From the sequence record MH571750.1: a DNA stretch of 64,000 bases. The stretch is one strand, 5' to 3'. The stretch is from Escherichia phage vB_EcoM-Ro111lw. A program made the position numbers and the translations under genes. Under the pieces are notes generated by a model that saw only the letters and a list, made by a program, of their open reading frames with translations, was not told the DNA's origin and did no database searches. How positions within the stretch are numbered: position 1 is the first letter of the stretch; every line of letters starts with the position of its first letter. This document shows, in pieces, positions 14,378 through 40,517 of the stretch.

Positions 14378-14620
14378 ATGCAAACATTAACAGTAGTTGA
14401 ACATGAAAACTGTGAGAGTATTGAGTTTGTCAGGGTCATTGGTGTTGAACACCACATTTTCTTAAAAGTGGGATACTTATGTGACCCCGCTAGAGTAGAA
14501 AGATTTATACGTGATTGTTTTGGTGGTAGACATCTGAAGAGTGTTATTTTTGAGACAGTTTTACCAGAAGGTTTAGAAACGAATAATAACATTTACCTCC
14601 TTACGAGGATTAGACAATGA
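14378..14620 (+). CDS. Hypothetical protein (80 aa) embedded in the tRNA array
   Basis: ORF track; AAGGTG Shine-Dalgarno 8 nt upstream of ATG; stop overlaps the next start (ATGA). Confidence 0.5.
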   Translation: MQTLTVVEHENCESIEFVRVIGVEHHIFLKVGYLCDPARVERFIRDCFGGRHLKSVIFETVLPEGLETNNNIYLLTRIRQ

Positions 14621-15174
14621 GATACTTAAAGTATGCTTCATGGATTTTCTTAGCTTTGTTAGAGCCATTTGCAGCAATCTTAGCAGTTATCTTAGCACCT
14701 TTTGTAGTTCCATTCTACAGTGAGAAGAAAGGACACTTACCTTTCGGGTTCAGATGGATGGAGACATATGACAACCCAATTGATGGTGATGAAGGTCACG
14801 TTAAAAGATGGGCTAATATTAGATGGATTGGTAAACTAGGCGTCTACATGCAAAGAGTTGGATGGCTCTGGAGAAACAAAGCTTATAACTTCTCTTACCA
14901 TGTATTAGGAAGAGATGTAAAAGATGTTACTAAGTGGAAAGGTAATATCAACGTAAGTTCTAACCCTGAAGATAATCAGACTGGTTATCTCCTAATGTGG
15001 AACAGTAATGCTTGGGGATTATTCGCTTTTATCCCATCAATTAAAGTCTTCGGTAAACAGTTTTACTGGAGAATTTATGTTGGATGGAAACTTAAAAGTG
15101 TTGTCCCAGAAGAAAGAGCATTCTCAAGGGAAAGAGTTATGTTGGCATTCTTTATTCATCCACTGAGAAAGTAA
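14617..15174 (+). CDS. Hypothetical protein (185 aa) with N-terminal transmembrane helix, embedded in the tRNA array
   Basis: ORF track; N-terminal WIFLALLEPFAAILAVILAPFVV hydrophobic segment; Trp-rich. Confidence 0.5.
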   Translation: MRYLKYASWIFLALLEPFAAILAVILAPFVVPFYSEKKGHLPFGFRWMETYDNPIDGDEGHVKRWANIRWIGKLGVYMQRVGWLWRNKAYNFSYHVLGRDVKDVTKWKGNINVSSNPEDNQTGYLLMWNSNAWGLFAFIPSIKVFGKQFYWRIYVGWKLKSVVPEERAFSRERVMLAFFIHPLRK

Positions 15175-15182
15175 AGATTTAA

Positions 15183-15258
15183 AGGGGATTAGTTTACAAG
15201 GTTAAAACCTCGGTCTTTGAAATCGAAGAAGTTGGTTCAATTCCAACATCCCCCGCCA
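15183..15258 (+). tRNA. tRNA-Gln (anticodon UUG)
   Basis: Acceptor AGGGGAT/ATCCCCC (1-72 mismatch), D-stem GTTT/AAAC, anticodon stem TCGGT/ATCGA loop CTTTGAA, T-arm GTTGG-TTCAATT-CCAAC, CCA. Confidence 0.75.
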
Positions 15259-15260
15259 AT

Positions 15261-15339
15261 GCTCCATTACTCCAATTGGCAGAGAGGCCAGACTTAAAAT
15301 CTGTGTTATGTATCGGTTCGAATCCGATATGGAGTACCA
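15261..15339 (+). tRNA. tRNA with Leu anticodon UAA and short variable loop; tRNA-Leu(UAA), atypical class I-like
   Basis: Acceptor GCTCCAT/ATGGAGT, anticodon stem CAGA/TCTG loop CTTAAAA, T-arm ATCGG-TTCGAAT-CCGAT, A73, CCA; 79 nt. Confidence 0.55.
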
Positions 15340-15344
15340 AATTT

Positions 15345-15420
15345 AGCGGTATAGCATAACTGGCAATGCAGCAGTCTCTGAAGCTGTCCTATTAAGGTTC
15401 AAATCCTTATGCCGCTGCCA
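15345..15420 (+). tRNA. tRNA-Gln (anticodon CUG)
   Basis: Acceptor AGCGGTA/TGCCGCT, anticodon stem GCAGT/GCTGT loop CTCTGAA, T-loop TTCAAAT, CCA. Confidence 0.7.
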
Positions 15421-15450
15421 CTTCTAAGGATTCTTACGAGAGTCCTTAAA
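15421..15450 (+). promoter_or_regulatory. Hairpin carrying the conserved 10-mer TTCTTACGAG (copy 2)
   Basis: cttctaaggattcttacgagagtccttaaa; same 10-mer as at 11560. Confidence 0.35.
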
Positions 15451-15451
15451 T

Positions 15452-15527
15452 GTGGCCTTATCATAAATGGTAATGACCCATGCTGTGAACATGGTCTATA
15501 CGGGTTCAAATCCCGTAGGTCACCCCA
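15452..15527 (+). tRNA. tRNA-His (anticodon GUG)
   Basis: Acceptor GTGGCCT/AGGTCAC, anticodon stem CCATG/CATGG loop CTGTGAA, T-arm ACGGG-TTCAAAT-CCCGT, C73, CCA. Confidence 0.8.
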
Positions 15528-15532
15528 ATTTA

Positions 15533-15609
15533 TAGTCCAAGTAGCTTATATGGTTAAAGCGCGTGTCTGAAAAACATGAGAAGAGGGTTCAAATCCCACT
15601 GGACTACCA
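15533..15609 (+). tRNA. tRNA-Phe (anticodon GAA); 3' end ambiguous (CCA directly follows the acceptor stem)
   Basis: Acceptor TAGTCCA/TGGACTA, anticodon stem CGTGT/ACATG loop CTGAAAA, T-loop TTCAAAT. Confidence 0.7.
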
Positions 15610-15625
15610 ATTTCAAAGGTGCTTA

Positions 15626-16360
15626 ATGAAAGAGATGACAGAACAAGGTAAGGAGATTTTCAATCTCTTAAAAACCGGTAAAGGGTTTTCTAACCCCCTT
15701 ATTACTGGTGCAGCAGTTCTCGGTGGAACCGTAGCTGCCTCTACATCACTTGTAAGCTCTATTAGCTCTGTATCAGACCCTACAGTAAAGGATAAGCTTG
15801 TTGCTGCTGGACTTACAACAGTTCTGCTTAACAGCTTTACCACGAGTCTGACAAGCACTACATCAACTACCAAAACACTAACAGATTACGGTCAAAAGTC
15901 CATTGATGAGTTTTCATCACGTATGCAGGTAGCAAAAGGTTACTCTAATGTTATGGGTGCAGCAGGTGAACAAGTTGGCTGTACACCATTTAGTGGTATT
16001 ATGGGTGTTGCTACAGAGTATGGTCAAAAAGCTATTGATACGATTAACAGTGCACTAGATAGTGTTAATGGTGTGTTAAGTGACTTACAAGATGCTATTG
16101 ACAAAGGTCTTGATACTATTTCTGATTTAGCTGAGCAAGCTGTTAGTAAGATTAATGAAGGTATTTCAAAAATTACAGCTTATGCAGATGAAGTTGTGCA
16201 GATGATTGAAGAAGAAGCTGCTCTTATTGCAGAGTACCTTAAAACGAATATCAATGGGTTCTTAGCAGGTATCTTACCAGACTGGTTTGATGATGCTTGT
16301 AAAACTGGTGTAATTGACACTATTGCAACACCAGAAATGAAGAACGCATTACAGAAATAA
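15626..16360 (+). CDS. Hypothetical Ser/Thr-rich protein (244 aa) embedded in the tRNA array; start trimmed from ORF-track 15563
   Basis: ORF-track start at 15563 lies inside tRNA-Phe; internal ATG at 15626 is preceded by AAAGGTG. Confidence 0.5.
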   Translation: MKEMTEQGKEIFNLLKTGKGFSNPLITGAAVLGGTVAASTSLVSSISSVSDPTVKDKLVAAGLTTVLLNSFTTSLTSTTSTTKTLTDYGQKSIDEFSSRMQVAKGYSNVMGAAGEQVGCTPFSGIMGVATEYGQKAIDTINSALDSVNGVLSDLQDAIDKGLDTISDLAEQAVSKINEGISKITAYADEVVQMIEEEAALIAEYLKTNINGFLAGILPDWFDDACKTGVIDTIATPEMKNALQK

Positions 16361-16362
16361 AT

Positions 16363-16455
16363 GGAAGATTAACCCTAAAAGGTAAGGGAGCAGTTTGCTA
16401 AACTGCCAGTAGCTGAGAAATCGGTGTACCAGTTCAAGTCTGGTATCTTCCTCCA
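16363..16455 (+). tRNA. tRNA-Ser (anticodon GCU), long variable arm
   Basis: Perfect acceptor GGAAGAT/ATCTTCC, anticodon stem GCAGT/ACTGC loop TTGCTAA, long variable arm, T-arm ACCAG-TTCAAGT-CTGGT, CCA. Confidence 0.8.
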
Positions 16456-16459
16456 ATTT

Positions 16460-16535
16460 GAATCCGTGACAGAAATGGCTATGTGCCTGTCTGCAAAACA
16501 GGTTTATAAGGGTTCGAGTCCCTTCGGATTCTCCA
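16460..16535 (+). tRNA. tRNA-Cys (anticodon GCA)
   Basis: Perfect acceptor GAATCCG/CGGATTC, anticodon stem CCTGT/ACAGG loop CTGCAAA, T-arm AAGGG-TTCGAGT-CCCTT, CCA. Confidence 0.8.
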
Positions 16536-16757: not shown

Positions 16758-16958
16758 ATGAGCGAGACCGTTTATAAAGAACTTTATGAAGCTAATAAGA
16801 AGCTAGAATTTATGCAGAATACTATCATGGCAATTGCAGACAGATTATCTGTAGCAACAGGTATTGATATTAAAGAAGCATCTATGGATGCACTTCTTGA
16901 TGCTGTTGATGCAAAGTTCGAAGTTAAGAAAGAAGAGACTGCTACAGACTCTGAATAA
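16758..16958 (+). CDS. Hypothetical small protein (66 aa) immediately upstream of terminase
   Basis: ORF track; 6-nt gap to the terminase gene. Confidence 0.45.
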   Translation: MSETVYKELYEANKKLEFMQNTIMAIADRLSVATGIDIKEASMDALLDAVDAKFEVKKEETATDSE

Positions 16959-28237: not shown

Positions 28238-33621
<5,384 letters not shown>

Positions 33622-36252: not shown

Positions 36253-37428
36253 ATGGCAGTAGGTGAAATTCAAATTAGTGCCTTGCCACAAGCGGCCTTA
36301 CCAATTGATTTGAGTGATATCTTCCATCTTAAGCAAGGTGTTGAGGATAAAAGATGTACGCTTGAACAGTTGTTAGCACCTCACGCATCTTTGAGGAATA
36401 ACCCTCATGGTGTAACGAAATCGCAAGTAGGTCTTGATAATGTTATTAACTCTCTTCAATTAGTTGCAGCTAATAACTTGTCAGACATTGTAAATGTTGC
36501 TGAGGCAAGAGCAAATCTACAAATTATGTCGTCAGAGGAAGTGAATAGCTTAATTCAGCAACATATTGACGATAAAAGCAACCCACACAACACAACGAAA
36601 GCACAGGTTGGTTTAAGTAATGTTCAGAACTGGACAACATCCAATCTGTACAATGAAGATGCTGATAAGTATGCTACAGCTAGAGCAGTGAATAATCTAT
36701 ATAAAGCTATCCAAGCATCATATCCAGTGGGTACTATTCATCTATCTGTTAACTCTGCTAACCCATCCACTTACTTGCTTTGTGGAGGTACTTGGGAGTT
36801 AGTTTCTAAAGGTAGAGCACTAGTTGGTTATGATACAGATTCTAGACCTGTTGGTTCAACGTTTGGTTCTCAGACTGTAGCATTAACAAATAATAATTTA
36901 CCAGCGCATACTCACTCTATCTATCTAACAGGTGGTGGTCATACACACTCTGCAAGTGTATCTATCTCTAGTTTTGATTATGGTTCAAAAAGTACATCAA
37001 CTTTTGATTACGGTACAAAAACGACTAATAGTGCTGGTGCTCACACTCACACGTTTAGTGGCACAACAAGCAATGCTGGTAACCACAACCATAGAGTCCC
37101 TATGAGGGGTAATGATAGGGGTGGCACAAACGCTATTACTGCATCTGCTGATGCTGGTGTTGGTAATGCTATGTATACTGATTTAGCTGGTGCTCACACC
37201 CATAGCTTCTCAGGTACAACTGCATCATCTGGTGCTCATAGCCATACTGTCGCAATTGGTGCTCACAGCCACACTGTTAATATTGGTTCGCACAGTCATA
37301 CAGGCACTGTTACTGTTTCTAGCTCTGAGCATACACACTCAGGGACATCTGGTTCTGTTGGTGGTGGTCAAGCTTTCAGTGTTGAGCAGCCATCTTTTGT
37401 AGTGTATGTGTGGCAGAGAACAGCTTAA
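36253..37428 (+). CDS. Tail fibre protein with His-rich HxH repeat C-terminal domain (tail-collar-type)
   Basis: C-terminal half carries repeated NLPAHTHS, GAHTHTFSG, GNHNHR, GAHSHTV, GSHSHTG, SEHTHSG motifs; C-terminus homologous to that of 37475..39835. Confidence 0.7.
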   Translation: MAVGEIQISALPQAALPIDLSDIFHLKQGVEDKRCTLEQLLAPHASLRNNPHGVTKSQVGLDNVINSLQLVAANNLSDIVNVAEARANLQIMSSEEVNSLIQQHIDDKSNPHNTTKAQVGLSNVQNWTTSNLYNEDADKYATARAVNNLYKAIQASYPVGTIHLSVNSANPSTYLLCGGTWELVSKGRALVGYDTDSRPVGSTFGSQTVALTNNNLPAHTHSIYLTGGGHTHSASVSISSFDYGSKSTSTFDYGTKTTNSAGAHTHTFSGTTSNAGNHNHRVPMRGNDRGGTNAITASADAGVGNAMYTDLAGAHTHSFSGTTASSGAHSHTVAIGAHSHTVNIGSHSHTGTVTVSSSEHTHSGTSGSVGGGQAFSVEQPSFVVYVWQRTA

Positions 37429-37438
37429 TTTCTTTACA

Positions 37439-37458
37439 GGGGCTTTGTAGCCCCTTTT
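37439..37458 (+). terminator. Terminator hairpin (AGGGGCT / AGCCCC + TTTT)
   Basis: aggggctttgtagccccttttaa. Confidence 0.55.
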
Positions 37459-37474
37459 AAGAGGAAAACTTATA

Positions 37475-39835
37475 ATGGCAGATTACAAATTGAGTCAATT
37501 AAACTCAATCGACACAATTAGTTCAGAAGACCTATTGCACATCAGAGTTAAGAAAAGACCTGAAATGTTGGGTGACGAAGACCGTAGAATGACCTATCAA
37601 GACTTCTTAGCTTCCTTCAAACTAGAAAGGTTTGTTCAGATTGCTGGGAGCAATATGACGGGGGATTTAGGTATTGTCAAGTTACTTTACGGTGGCAAGG
37701 CTGTATTTGACCCTACAGGTTCTTCTGAAATTACTATTGGGGATGTTTTAAAGACTTTTAAACTTAACGCAAATGGTCTTAAACTAACTATTGCAGATGC
37801 TTCAAGGTCAGCAACTGTTTATCATACTCTGAATAAGCCAAGTCCTAATGAACTTGGGATGAGAACTAATGAAGAAAATGATGCAAGATATGCAAGACTT
37901 GCTGTTACAAATAACTTCAGTATTAGGCAAGCAATTGTAACTGATGGTGAGCAGTTAACTCTTAAGAAGGCAACCAATGCAGGTGCTTCATATATTCAAG
38001 GTAGAGATGCTAATAACCAGCAAACTTGGTATGTTGGACAGGGGACTTCAAACAGTACCAATGTTTATTTGTACAATCATGCTACTGGCTCAATGTTAAC
38101 CCTTGATGCAACAGCAGCATTTAATAAGTCACTTAGAATCTCCGGACAGATTCAACCTTCAGATTTCTCTAACTTAGATGCTAGATACTTCACTCAGACA
38201 GTTGCTAATCAGAGATTTGCACAGTTAGCTGGCAATAATACTTTTACAGGTGCTAACACTTTCACTAACCTTGTTGCTAAGAAGAATGCTAATGCTATTA
38301 CTTTACAGAATACTGATGCAAGTACAGCACTTTACATTCTCGGTAAGAAGTCTGATGGAACAAATAAATGGTATGTTGGTACAGATTCTGACGAGACACG
38401 TCTAAACATTTATAACTACCTTACAGGTTCACAGATTTCACTAGGTACTACTATTGGTATCAATAAGACTGTGCAAATCACTGGACAAGTCCAACCTTCA
38501 GATTGGGCTAATATTGACTCTAGATATATTCCGGCAGCAACATTAAGTACGATTGCAAGAACTAATGCTGCTAATACATTCTCTGCACAACAGGTTATCA
38601 ACTCTGATGGCGAAGCTCTTGCGTTACAAGCAAAAACTGTAACGTCATTGTTTATCAGAGGTAAATCTGCTGATGGAACTAGCAAGTGGTATGTTGGGAA
38701 TGGTGATGCCAGCGACATCTTAAACCTGTATAACTACAAGACAGGTAAAGGGCTTAACATTGGTTCATCATTCGAAATGAATGCAACTTTAACAATCACT
38801 GGGCAAGTTCAACCTTCAGATTTCTCTAACTTAGATGCTAGATATTACACGCAATCTACCGCAAACTCTAGGTATATGCTTGCTTATTCTTCTGGCACTG
38901 GTACAGAGGTAGGTGATAGTGATGGAATTGCTTGGAATGCTAAAACTGGTCTGTATAATGTTATAACGAAATCTGGTGGTTCAACACAACTGGTCTACCA
39001 TATGTATCAGGGTAGCAGTTCTACACCAGCAGCTCAGTTAAAATTTAACTACAACAATGGCGGTTTTTGGTATAGGTCAGCAAGAGACGGTTATGGTTTT
39101 GAGAGTGCTTGGTCTAAAATCTATACAGACAAAGATAAACCAACCCCTTCAGACATCGGTGCATACACTAAAGCTGAAACTGACCAGAAGATTGCAGATG
39201 CAATTAGTGACTCTACAGACCTGAATAAAATCTATCCAGTAGGGATTGTGACGTGGTTTAACAGTAATGTCAACCCTAACACAGCACTTCCTGGGTTAAC
39301 TTGGACGTACCTGAACAATGGTGTTGGCAGAACTATTAGAATTGCAGCAGCAAATGGTTCAGATGTTGCTACAACTGGTGGTTCAGACTCTGTAACATTA
39401 GCTGTTGGTAACTTGCCTTCACACACGCATAGTTTCTCTGCTACCACTTCATCATTTGATTATGGTACTAAGACTTCTAGCACAACTGGTAACCATAACC
39501 ACAACAGAGGGACTATGGAGATTACTGGTACAGTGGGTTACTTTAGAAGTGACTCTAGCAGCTTCTACACAGCAAGTGGTGCATTCACACTTGGTAGCTC
39601 AACTGCTTCTAAGGGTTTTACTGGCTCTAACTTCACTAATGGTATCCCTGCTAACTTTAATGCGTCAAGAACTTGGTCTGGTGTAACGAATACGACAGGT
39701 AACCACAGCCACACTGTTGGTATTGGTGCTCACAGCCACACAGTTAGTGGTAACACAGGTGGTACTGGTTCTGGTTCAGCATTTAGTGTTACTAACCAGT
39801 TCTATAAGTTAATGGCTTGGGTGAGAACTGCTTAG
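37475..39835 (+). CDS. Long tail fibre protein (786 aa) with internal repeats and His-rich HxH C-terminal domain
   Basis: Repeated about 90-aa units (…QPSDFSNLDARY… occurs twice, QPSDWANIDSRY once); C-terminus GNLPSHTHSF…GNHSHTVGIGAHSHTV…AFSV… parallels the 391-aa fibre. Confidence 0.75.
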   Translation: MADYKLSQLNSIDTISSEDLLHIRVKKRPEMLGDEDRRMTYQDFLASFKLERFVQIAGSNMTGDLGIVKLLYGGKAVFDPTGSSEITIGDVLKTFKLNANGLKLTIADASRSATVYHTLNKPSPNELGMRTNEENDARYARLAVTNNFSIRQAIVTDGEQLTLKKATNAGASYIQGRDANNQQTWYVGQGTSNSTNVYLYNHATGSMLTLDATAAFNKSLRISGQIQPSDFSNLDARYFTQTVANQRFAQLAGNNTFTGANTFTNLVAKKNANAITLQNTDASTALYILGKKSDGTNKWYVGTDSDETRLNIYNYLTGSQISLGTTIGINKTVQITGQVQPSDWANIDSRYIPAATLSTIARTNAANTFSAQQVINSDGEALALQAKTVTSLFIRGKSADGTSKWYVGNGDASDILNLYNYKTGKGLNIGSSFEMNATLTITGQVQPSDFSNLDARYYTQSTANSRYMLAYSSGTGTEVGDSDGIAWNAKTGLYNVITKSGGSTQLVYHMYQGSSSTPAAQLKFNYNNGGFWYRSARDGYGFESAWSKIYTDKDKPTPSDIGAYTKAETDQKIADAISDSTDLNKIYPVGIVTWFNSNVNPNTALPGLTWTYLNNGVGRTIRIAAANGSDVATTGGSDSVTLAVGNLPSHTHSFSATTSSFDYGTKTSSTTGNHNHNRGTMEITGTVGYFRSDSSSFYTASGAFTLGSSTASKGFTGSNFTNGIPANFNASRTWSGVTNTTGNHSHTVGIGAHSHTVSGNTGGTGSGSAFSVTNQFYKLMAWVRTA

Positions 39836-39914: not shown

Positions 39915-40112
39915 ATGCCTACAATCCTAGCAATTCTTCTAAAAAATCTAGGTAGCTTCTTCTGGAAACTCATTTTATCCCTTCTAAGTGAATACATGAT
40001 TGAGAAAGTGTTCTTTAAGCTTGCAAGATACCTTGCGAGTAAGACAGACACACCTATTGATGATGAGTTCGTAGATAACTTAGAAAAAGCTTTTAAGGGG
40101 GAGAATAAATGA
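39915..40112 (+). CDS. Hypothetical small protein (65 aa)
   Basis: ORF track. Confidence 0.4.
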   Translation: MPTILAILLKNLGSFFWKLILSLLSEYMIEKVFFKLARYLASKTDTPIDDEFVDNLEKAFKGENK

Positions 40113-40480
40113 AGTGGCTAGAGGATGCTTTTAAAAATAATATTGGTGCAATTGTAGTTGGTATTTTTAGTGTTATTGGGATGTATACCACGATGCAGGT
40201 TTCAAGTGGTAAACAAGAAGTGTCTGTCACAACAAAGTTACAACAGCTAGATAATTATTCCAAAAGTAACTATTCAGCTATTCGTGATTTACAGTCTGAC
40301 ATGAGACTGATTCAGCTAGGGATGGAGAACCAGAAAGTCCAGTTAGAGAATGTTAAGGGTGAAAACGCAAAACTTACCAAAACCCTTGATAAATTCTCTG
40401 ACAGTGTGAACAATCTGGCTCAATCAGTATCAGCCTTGCAAGCTATTACTGAAAAGAACACAAAGAATACTGAAAAATAA
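40109..40480 (+). CDS. Hypothetical protein with N-terminal TM helix and coiled-coil (123 aa)
   Basis: N-terminal IGAIVVGIFSVIGMYTTMQV; remainder helical/Gln-Leu rich. Confidence 0.45.
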   Translation: MKWLEDAFKNNIGAIVVGIFSVIGMYTTMQVSSGKQEVSVTTKLQQLDNYSKSNYSAIRDLQSDMRLIQLGMENQKVQLENVKGENAKLTKTLDKFSDSVNNLAQSVSALQAITEKNTKNTEK

Positions 40481-40487
40481 AATTTAA

Positions 40488-40517
40488 GGCTCCTTTTTAC
40501 GGGAGCCTTTTTGTTTT
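40488..40517. terminator. Bidirectional rho-independent terminator between convergent gene blocks (GGCTCC / GGAGCC flanked by T-runs)
   Basis: aaggctcctttttacgggagcctttttgttttt read directly. Confidence 0.7.

Follow-up and report, generated by a model that had tools for sequence, protein, structure and literature searches.

Two lateral tail fibres of Escherichia phage vB_EcoM-Ro111lw with tips homologous to T4 gp37 and putative histidine-held metal sites

Two adjacent tail fibre genes of Escherichia phage vB_EcoM-Ro111lw (sequence record MH571750.1) were analysed within a stretch of 64,000 nt (the window), where they occupy positions 36253-39835 (3.6 kb). Both are read from the + strand and encode a short tail fibre (STF, 391 amino acids) and a long tail fibre (LTF, 786 amino acids), with a gap of 46 nt between them. 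With a probability of roughly 0.88, these proteins represent the lateral fibres of a Felixounavirus, each a homotrimer that would end in a receptor-binding tip of the T4 gp37 type riveted by metal ions. The evidence comprises homology of the tips to T4 gp37, a shared register of HxH motifs (two histidines separated by one residue), conservation of these motifs, the pattern of variability around them and synteny with related phages.

The C-terminal part of STF harbours nine HxH motifs (residues 219, 230, 264, 278, 315, 329, 338, 347 and 360, with T, T, T, N, T, S, S, S and T as the respective middle residues), while that of LTF harbours four (650, 674, 744 and 753, with T, N, S and S). The motifs account for 18 of the 19 histidines in STF 154-391 and for all eight in LTF 584-786. 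Composition-preserving shuffles of the C-terminal regions reached the observed count in 0 of 20000 trials for STF (mean 1.45) and in 1 of 20000 for LTF (mean 0.27), and none of the other reading frames of at least 100 amino acids in the window contained more than two motifs. Taken with the invariance of the motifs, the shuffle statistics rule out a compositional artefact or a low-complexity histidine run. The original prediction had described two tail fibres with multiple C-terminal HxH motifs; both open reading frames (ORFs) lie exactly at the coordinates it gave, the motif counts are far above those of the shuffled sequences, and the strings that it quoted (AHTHS, GAHSHTV, GNHNHR and GNHSHTVGIGAHSHTV) are all present, GAHSHTV twice.

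Comparison with gp37-type tip domains, which it had named as a check, gave matches to the T4 gp37 tip (PDB 2XGF), with which STF 146-362 aligns over 2XGF residues 18-227 (E=1.8e-26). For LTF 648-765, the single sequence reached E=3e-4 and a profile of 73 sequences E=3.8e-13. The motif register was obtained from a three-way alignment of T4 gp37, STF and LTF, combined with residue mapping. T4 H883 corresponds to STF 219 and LTF 650, H915 to STF 264 and LTF 674, H980 to STF 329 and LTF 744, and H989 to STF 338 and LTF 753; H929, H966 and H998 correspond to STF 278, 315 and 347, and their counterparts are absent from LTF. In total, STF retains all seven T4 motifs and carries two extra ones with no equivalent in T4 or LTF (230, within a 13-residue insertion relative to T4 gp37, and 360); the outgoing and the returning strand each bear one of these, towards the collar. 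LTF retains four of the seven and is without the two head-proximal motifs and the last motif, a 67-residue His-free stretch lying between 674 and 744.

The motifs are conserved among the homologues of both proteins. All eight histidines of the LTF motifs are invariant in 73 homologues, whereas among 51 STF sequences both histidines are invariant or at least 90% conserved in five of the nine motifs (219, 278, 315, 338 and 347); the modal count of exactly nine motifs is found in 56 of 73 STF orthologues. In 2XGF, the iron ions are reportedly buried on the needle axis in octahedral sites, with six histidines per ion contributed by three chains. Seven iron ions are held by HxH pairs in T4 gp37, as cited in PMC11705849 and PMC12609058. 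The likening of the motifs to metal-coordinating motifs of fibre tips in the original prediction is thus supported, as those of STF and LTF are homologous to, and in register with, the iron-coordinating HxH motifs of 2XGF.

Synteny is in agreement with this assignment. A megablast search with the 3.6-kb interval matched 234 phage records; those with annotation are Felix O1-like myophages of Escherichia, Salmonella and Shigella, with E. coli phage vB_EcoM_DE17 as the top match (~94% DNA identity). Judged by its sequence, the window is that of a Felixounavirus syntenic with Bas63 (JohannRWettstein), with collinearity to the Bas63 genome over nearly the whole window length. The gene order (two wedge proteins, a 100-residue protein, the 391- and 786-residue fibres, ORFs of 65 and 123 residues, and then thyA and frd on the opposite strand) is the same in DE17, Bas63, Sf14, SUSP2, HP1 and UAB_Phi87. 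Both fibres lie between the gene of the LTF-platform protein, reported as the attachment point of the long fibre (PMC12609058), and the thyA block, and their N-terminal domains are conserved across genera, which supports orthology. STF is 76.5% identical to Bas63 gp26 and 97.7% to the DE17 protein, and LTF is 63.7% identical to Bas63 gp27 and 89.4% to its DE17 counterpart. Both match PHROG tail fibre families end to end (Table 1), as anticipated from their prediction as tail fibres. According to cryo-electron microscopy (cryo-EM) and AlphaFold, the Bas63 fibres comprise a T4-gp37-like collar, an HxH needle and a head, and the chain doubles back at the head to give a six-stranded needle (PMC12609058).

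Variability is concentrated in the head. Relative to Bas63, the collar, proximal needle and C-terminal strand are 90-100% identical, as against 20-48% for the head (28-48% at STF 241-320 and 20% at LTF 681-720), and DNA similarity is broken at 37019-37230 in STF and 39490-39698 in LTF. The LTF head type of the window occurs in ~60 phage records, mostly of O157:H7 or Shigella phages, including Sf14 (63%). This pattern points to the head as a cassette swapped between phages and flanked by conserved collar, proximal needle and C-terminal strand; the specificity-relevant divergence would then reside in the head inside the tip (STF 241-320, LTF 681-740) and not in the N-terminal parts. In Bas63, cryo-EM found that the N-terminal parts anchor the two fibres to different baseplate sites (PMC12609058). 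The idea of two receptor specificities, put forward in the original prediction, is plausible and has been proposed in print (PMC11821841), whereas its attribution to divergent N-terminal shafts is not supported, the variability being located in the head and the N-termini serving as baseplate anchors (PMC12609058).

A working model can be drawn up in which trimer geometry, the occupancy and identity of the metal, and the question of which fibre binds what follow T4 crystallography and the cryo-EM of Bas63 and Sf14. The N-termini would dock on the baseplate, through a wedge protein in the case of STF and, for LTF, through the small platform protein whose gene lies immediately 5' of the fibre pair. 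From the globular collar the chain would extend distally as a strand of the trimeric needle (six strands in all), turn in the head at the far end and return to the collar; the STF head aligns to the interval from T4 motif 929 to motif 966, to which the chain reversal at the needle head has been assigned (PMC12609058). Every HxH motif would point into the needle core, and each metal ion, Fe2+ in the case of T4, would sit on the three-fold axis and be bound by six imidazoles from the three chains. Rather than contacting the receptor, the metals would act as rivets that stabilise a thin needle. The alignment predicts nine ions for the STF needle, seven as in T4 gp37 and two at the collar end, and four for the LTF needle, in which a larger His-free head would replace the two head-proximal sites. 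Host recognition, based on the lipopolysaccharide (LPS) core in this phage group, would be provided by the hypervariable head. Receptors reported for the group are LPS core structures (PMC8594841, PMC4690856), and two 2026 receptor-screen preprints (including 10.64898/2026.04.02.716166) contain no receptor assignment for Felixounavirus fibres.

Several points weigh against this interpretation. LTF keeps only four of the seven T4 metal sites, so that its needle geometry would have to be extrapolated from T4, and an ion other than Fe, such as Zn or Ni, could be bound. The collar assignment is weaker for LTF than for STF: as a single sequence, the LTF collar falls below the Pfam cut-off (PF21939, 24.1 bits vs 27), while STF 154-276 matches the same Gp10_C family at 68 bits (E=2.1e-18) and the STF collar also matches the gp10 PDB entries 2FKK/5HX2 (E ~3e-6). 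On the other side, PF21939 is precomputed in most of 120 LTF homologues among the matches listed, and the LTF collar is 90-100% identical to that of Bas63, with a YPVG...W motif that aligns with the STF and T4 collars. The AlphaFold2 (AF2) monomer models are mediocre and were not used as evidence. Their mean confidence (predicted local distance difference test, pLDDT) is 74 for the STF tip and 65 for the LTF tip, with two long beta segments flanking a low-confidence loop (tip residues 148-164 in STF) and pLDDT below 50 in the heads, including that of LTF. A Foldseek search of both AF2 tip models against the PDB gave no match at E<=0.001; the match of the STF model to the gp10 C-terminal domain (2FKK) had a probability of 0.97 and was not significant (E=0.055). 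The weakness of the models and of the Foldseek results is attributed to the inability of a monomer to represent an interwoven trimer. Needle matches to pore-forming toxins were discarded as spurious long hairpins, only the collar being weakly aligned with T4 gp10-C. Furthermore, host-range-associated changes in a Felixounavirus long fibre have been reported at residues 497 and 534 (PMC6669636), which fall in the Mu-S-like domain region and not in the head. Finally, tblastn and phmmer searches for homologues of T4 gp38 and lambda Tfa returned none at E<=0.1 in the window or the complete Bas63 genome, under conditions in which gp38 recovered Tfa as the positive control (E=6.5e-18) and remote homologues could escape; assembly of these tips may differ from that of T4.

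Every T4- or lambda-type tip surveyed so far is followed directly by an assembly gene of the gp38/Tfa type (PMC9659904). The ORFs located 3' of LTF (39915-40480, +) encode a 65-residue hydrophobic protein and a 123-residue protein with a transmembrane segment and a coiled coil, which in relatives carries the annotation ‘putative holin’. In Pfam and PHROG scans the two match PHROGs of unknown function or coiled-coil models and are unrelated to Tfa. A role as tip-specific chaperones was rejected, as both are 97-98% identical to their Bas63 counterparts despite the different fibre heads. The Bas63 paper does not deal with tip folding (PMC12609058). It is conceivable, though on balance doubtful, that the Ounavirinae build gp37-type metal-riveted needle tips on two fibres without any chaperone of the gp38/Tfa class. 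Folding would then depend on a strongly conserved scaffold made up of collar, proximal needle and C-terminal strand, or on a factor that has escaped recognition.

With regard to the function of the motifs, a ‘Trojan horse’ hypothesis has been published for HxH-bearing fibres (PMC11705849), according to which fibre-bound iron is recognised by siderophore receptors of the host and the HxH metals determine adsorption. The metal load estimated from the alignments would be compatible with such a role (~9x6 + 4x6 ions in the fibres of the phage and one in the central spike), yet the homologous T4 structure places the ions on the needle axis with six histidines each, the motifs line the needle in Bas63 (PMC12609058), and their positions are invariant while host range varies, the variable part being the His-free head. 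The Felixounavirus receptors mapped so far are, moreover, LPS core and not TonB-dependent transporters (PMC8594841, PMC4690856, 10.64898/2026.04.02.716166), and the hypothesis is considered extremely improbable here. By analogy with T4, the motifs are most likely structural and would be buried on the three-fold axis, which speaks against the direct role in adsorption that the original prediction had implied; since the role to be expected is structural, its proposal to discard the idea if adsorption did not involve the motifs was mismatched. A separate possibility is that only one tip binds a receptor, the other (probably that of STF, resting between sheath subunits) being a latch or trigger that senses fibre position, in which case a shared tip would not imply two receptor specificities. 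The retracted state of Bas63 has the STF head between sheath domains D2 and D3 of ring 10 (PMC12609058), the authors of the Sf14 study named a likely partner for one fibre only (PMC11821841), and the STF tip is bimodal in relatives (~34 records with at least 95% identity and 210 records with 60-80%). Nevertheless, hypervariability is just as pronounced in the STF head (28-48% identity to Bas63) as in that of LTF, which is a signature of host-driven diversifying selection and not of conserved contact with an almost invariant sheath, and the T4 adhesin is more closely related to the STF tip than to the LTF tip. A latch function of one tip is regarded as improbable.

The origin of the two tips is a related issue, as the original prediction had explained them by duplication followed by divergence of the shafts. 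The tips are alignable (34% identity over 194 columns, BLASTP E=3e-17), and the last strands are alike, as predicted (STF ...QAFSVEQPSFVVYVWQRTA, LTF ...SAFSVTNQFYKLMAWVRTA; common pattern AFSV...W.RTA). A recent tandem duplication in this phage lineage would also fit the adjacency and common orientation of the genes, the 80% identity of a 49-nt stretch between them (37264-37312 and 39704-39752), a short N-terminal motif common to both fibres (D-[IL]-x-H-[LI]...G-x-ED-[KR]-R-x-T) and the structural similarity of the N-terminal domains noted by the Bas63 authors (PMC12609058). It is set against the outside relationships of the tips: the STF tip is nearer to T4 gp37 (39% identity) than to the LTF tip, and the LTF tip is nearer to prophage fibres of other genera, namely Mixta, Erwinia, Providencia and Serratia (45-57%; alignment A2). 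Lambda-type Stf and E. coli prophage fibres likewise share 41-57% identity with the HxH region of the STF needle. Three genera of the Ounavirinae (Felixounavirus, Mooglevirus and Suspvirus) already possess the gene pair in this order. A profile comparison of the STF and LTF N-termini, built on shallow alignments, showed no significant similarity (hhalign E=0.033, with a probability of 1.5%). The long-fibre tip of phage vB_EcoM_VpaE1 is 54% identical to T4 gp37 (PMC4690856) as compared to 31% for the window's LTF tip, and tips are therefore exchanged within the genus. Low mutual identity together with closer outside relatives thus makes the tips old paralogues or independently exchanged modules; they would be paralogous, a recent in-genome duplication is unlikely, and an ancient duplication is possible as their source. 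Though short, the 49-nt stretch, which encodes the HSHTVxIGxHSHT unit, might allow the two tips to recombine.

Table 1. Features of the two fibre genes and of the adjoining platform gene (positions in the window; residue numbers refer to the respective protein).
Feature	Position	Strand	Basis and remarks
LTF-platform protein, 100 amino acids	35948..36250	+	87% identical to Bas63 gp25, same position
STF gene, 391 amino acids	36253..37428	+	phrog_2097 tail fibre, E=2e-139; orthologue of Bas63 gp26 and Sf14 gp52
STF N-terminal baseplate-binding region and helical repeats, residues 1-150	36253..36702	+	function from PMC12609058
STF collar of gp10/gp37-collar type, residues ~154-215	36712..36897	+	Pfam PF21939 Gp10_C
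STF ascending needle strand, HxH at 219, 230, 264, 278	36898..37098	+	motif scan, T4 alignment
STF head, distal, putatively receptor-contacting, residues ~283-312	37099..37188	+	hypervariable; DNA similarity break
STF descending needle strand, HxH at 315, 329, 338, 347, 360	37189..37347	+	motif scan, T4 alignment
STF C-terminal strand returning to collar, ...AFSVEQPSFVVYVWQRTA	37348..37425	+	conserved in at least 70 orthologues
LTF gene, 786 amino acids	37475..39835	+	phrog_4277, E=0, full length; orthologue of Bas63 gp27 and Sf14 gp53
LTF N-terminal baseplate-binding region, residues 1-150	37475..37924	+	function from PMC12609058
LTF shaft, three repeat domains of ~110 amino acids	37946..38884	+	Pfam PF20744 gp37_trimer, E=3.3e-59, 3 stretches
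LTF Mu-S-like domain, residues 472-581	38888..39217	+	Pfam PF12604
LTF collar, residues ~584-646	39224..39412	+	PF21939, E=7.6e-5, 24.1 bits
LTF ascending needle, HxH at 650, 674	39413..39508	+	motif scan, T4 alignment
LTF His-free head, residues ~679-741	39509..39697	+	alignments with T4, STF and Bas63
LTF descending needle, HxH at 744, 753	39698..39745	+	motif scan, T4 alignment
LTF C-terminal strand, ...AFSVTNQFYKLMAWVRTA	39746..39832	+	100% identical to Bas63

The architecture of the fibres is summarised in Table 1. The N-terminal region of STF (residues 1-150) is 90-98% identical to Bas63 gp26 and 81-95% identical across three Ounavirinae genera. It contains two NPHxxTKxQVGLxNVxN repeats, at residues 50 and 110 and thus 60 residues apart (residues 50-126; 36400-36630), which are probably the ‘triple alpha-helix and turn’ elements described for Bas63. 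Motifs of the descending strand follow a 9-residue period (27 nt; DNA repeat D3), and the C-terminal strand aligns with the C-termini of LTF and T4 gp37, with R and the final A invariant.

The corresponding N-terminal region of LTF (residues 1-150) is 71-95% identical across seven Ounavirinae. Repeats are also visible in the DNA of its shaft (at 38137, 38476 and 38794; period 318-339 nt; 67-87% identity over 60 nt), each finishing with QPSD[FW]xN[LI]DxRY (38137-38853), and the shaft has a weak match to T7 gp17 (PDB 4A0T). The Mu-S-like domain is well supported (PF12604, E=2.2e-27, 95.5 bits against a cut-off of 22.5; Mu tail fibre S, PDB 8JU3, E=6e-26). A second variable patch away from the tip is found at residues 441-560 (38795-39154), where identity to DE17 is 42-65% as against 90-100% elsewhere. 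The LTF head stands where Bas63 and T4 have two head-proximal HxH sites, and the KLM[AG]W[YV]R motif of the C-terminal strand is conserved in prophage homologues.

The fibre genes appear to lie within a long late operon. Its end would be marked by a GC-rich hairpin (40486-40509) with a T-run on either strand, located between the + strand structural genes and the - strand thyA/frd block; by its sequence features the hairpin is terminator-like, resembling a bidirectional terminator that would close the operon. A promoter scan revealed no enrichment over shuffled sequences. The central spike (puncturing) protein of this tail module (207 amino acids, 32580-33203, +) has a single HxH near its C-terminus (H188-T-H190, followed by H191), which constitutes a third kind of His-metal site there; the corresponding HxH motifs of the Bas63 and Sf14 spikes are reported as iron-binding. 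Elsewhere in the window, 26 tRNA genes including tRNA-His(GTG) are encoded at 10867-16535 (+), an array typical of Felixounavirus genomes. Just downstream of the array, position 16758 corresponds by alignment to the first position of the Bas63 record, in which the terminase gene comes first among the large genes.

Tips of this kind have been described in several phages. The C-terminal homology of both Felix O1-like fibres to T4 gp37 was first reported for gp74 and gp75 of vB_EcoM_VpaE1 (Viruses 2015, PMC4690856), whose boundaries (gp74 residues 146-362, gp75 residues 584-780) agree with those of the window; the VpaE1 LTF tip is T4-like, to which the window's LTF tip does not come as close. Bas63 gp26 and gp27, from the same genus and with identical order from the wedge proteins to thyA, provide the nearest imaged system (Sci Adv 2025, PMC12609058), with differences in HxH counts (7 in STF and 6 in LTF, vs 9 and 4 in the window) and in head segments (20-48% identity); Bas63 LTF has two more HxH sites where LTF of the window has its His-free stretch of 67 residues (674-744). 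In the Mooglevirus Sf14, a Shigella phage, gp52 and gp53 (391 and 792 amino acids) have been studied in the retracted state and share the gene order (Commun Biol 2025, PMC11821841). The head of gp53 belongs to the type found in LTF of the window (63% identity over 81 residues), a gp10-C-like collar was noted in gp52, and the retracted fibres measure 430 and 630 A (PMC11821841). Sf14 differs in belonging to another genus, in the placement of the gp37/C24-like region ‘in the centre of the fibre’ and in that HxH metal sites of the fibres are not discussed (PMC11821841). Tips of lambda Stf and of prophages resemble the STF needle and the LTF tip, but carry a Tfa/gp38-type gene directly downstream (PMC9659904).

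Likeness to T4 gp37 itself extends to collar-needle-head homology, HxH register and the C-terminal strand. Nevertheless, T4 gp37 forms the distal quarter of a jointed fibre of four proteins, whereas the tips of the window are fused to single-protein fibres that bind directly to the baseplate, and the number of metal sites is seven in T4 as compared to nine and four by alignment. T4 gp37 needs gp38, encoded directly downstream, of which (as of Tfa) no homologue was found in the window; it also needs gp57A. Receptors differ as well, being OmpC or LPS for T4 and, as reported, LPS core for Felixounaviruses.

Two fibres with a shared gp37-like tip and HxH motifs are thus already published (VpaE1 in 2015; Sf14 and Bas63 in 2025), and the window differs from Bas63 in detail only, its head cassette being present in sequenced and imaged relatives; the finding carries little weight as a discovery. 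It places vB_EcoM-Ro111lw in the O157:H7/Shigella phage group with a distinct long-fibre head, characterised by four metal sites and the His-free stretch of 67 residues. The conserved flanks offer clean junctions for head-swap engineering, which is of modest practical value. Only the apparent lack of a gp38/Tfa chaperone might open up something new: if true, heads would be swappable without a co-evolving chaperone, and these fibres would provide a simpler chassis for the engineering of receptor-binding proteins than the T4 or lambda modules.

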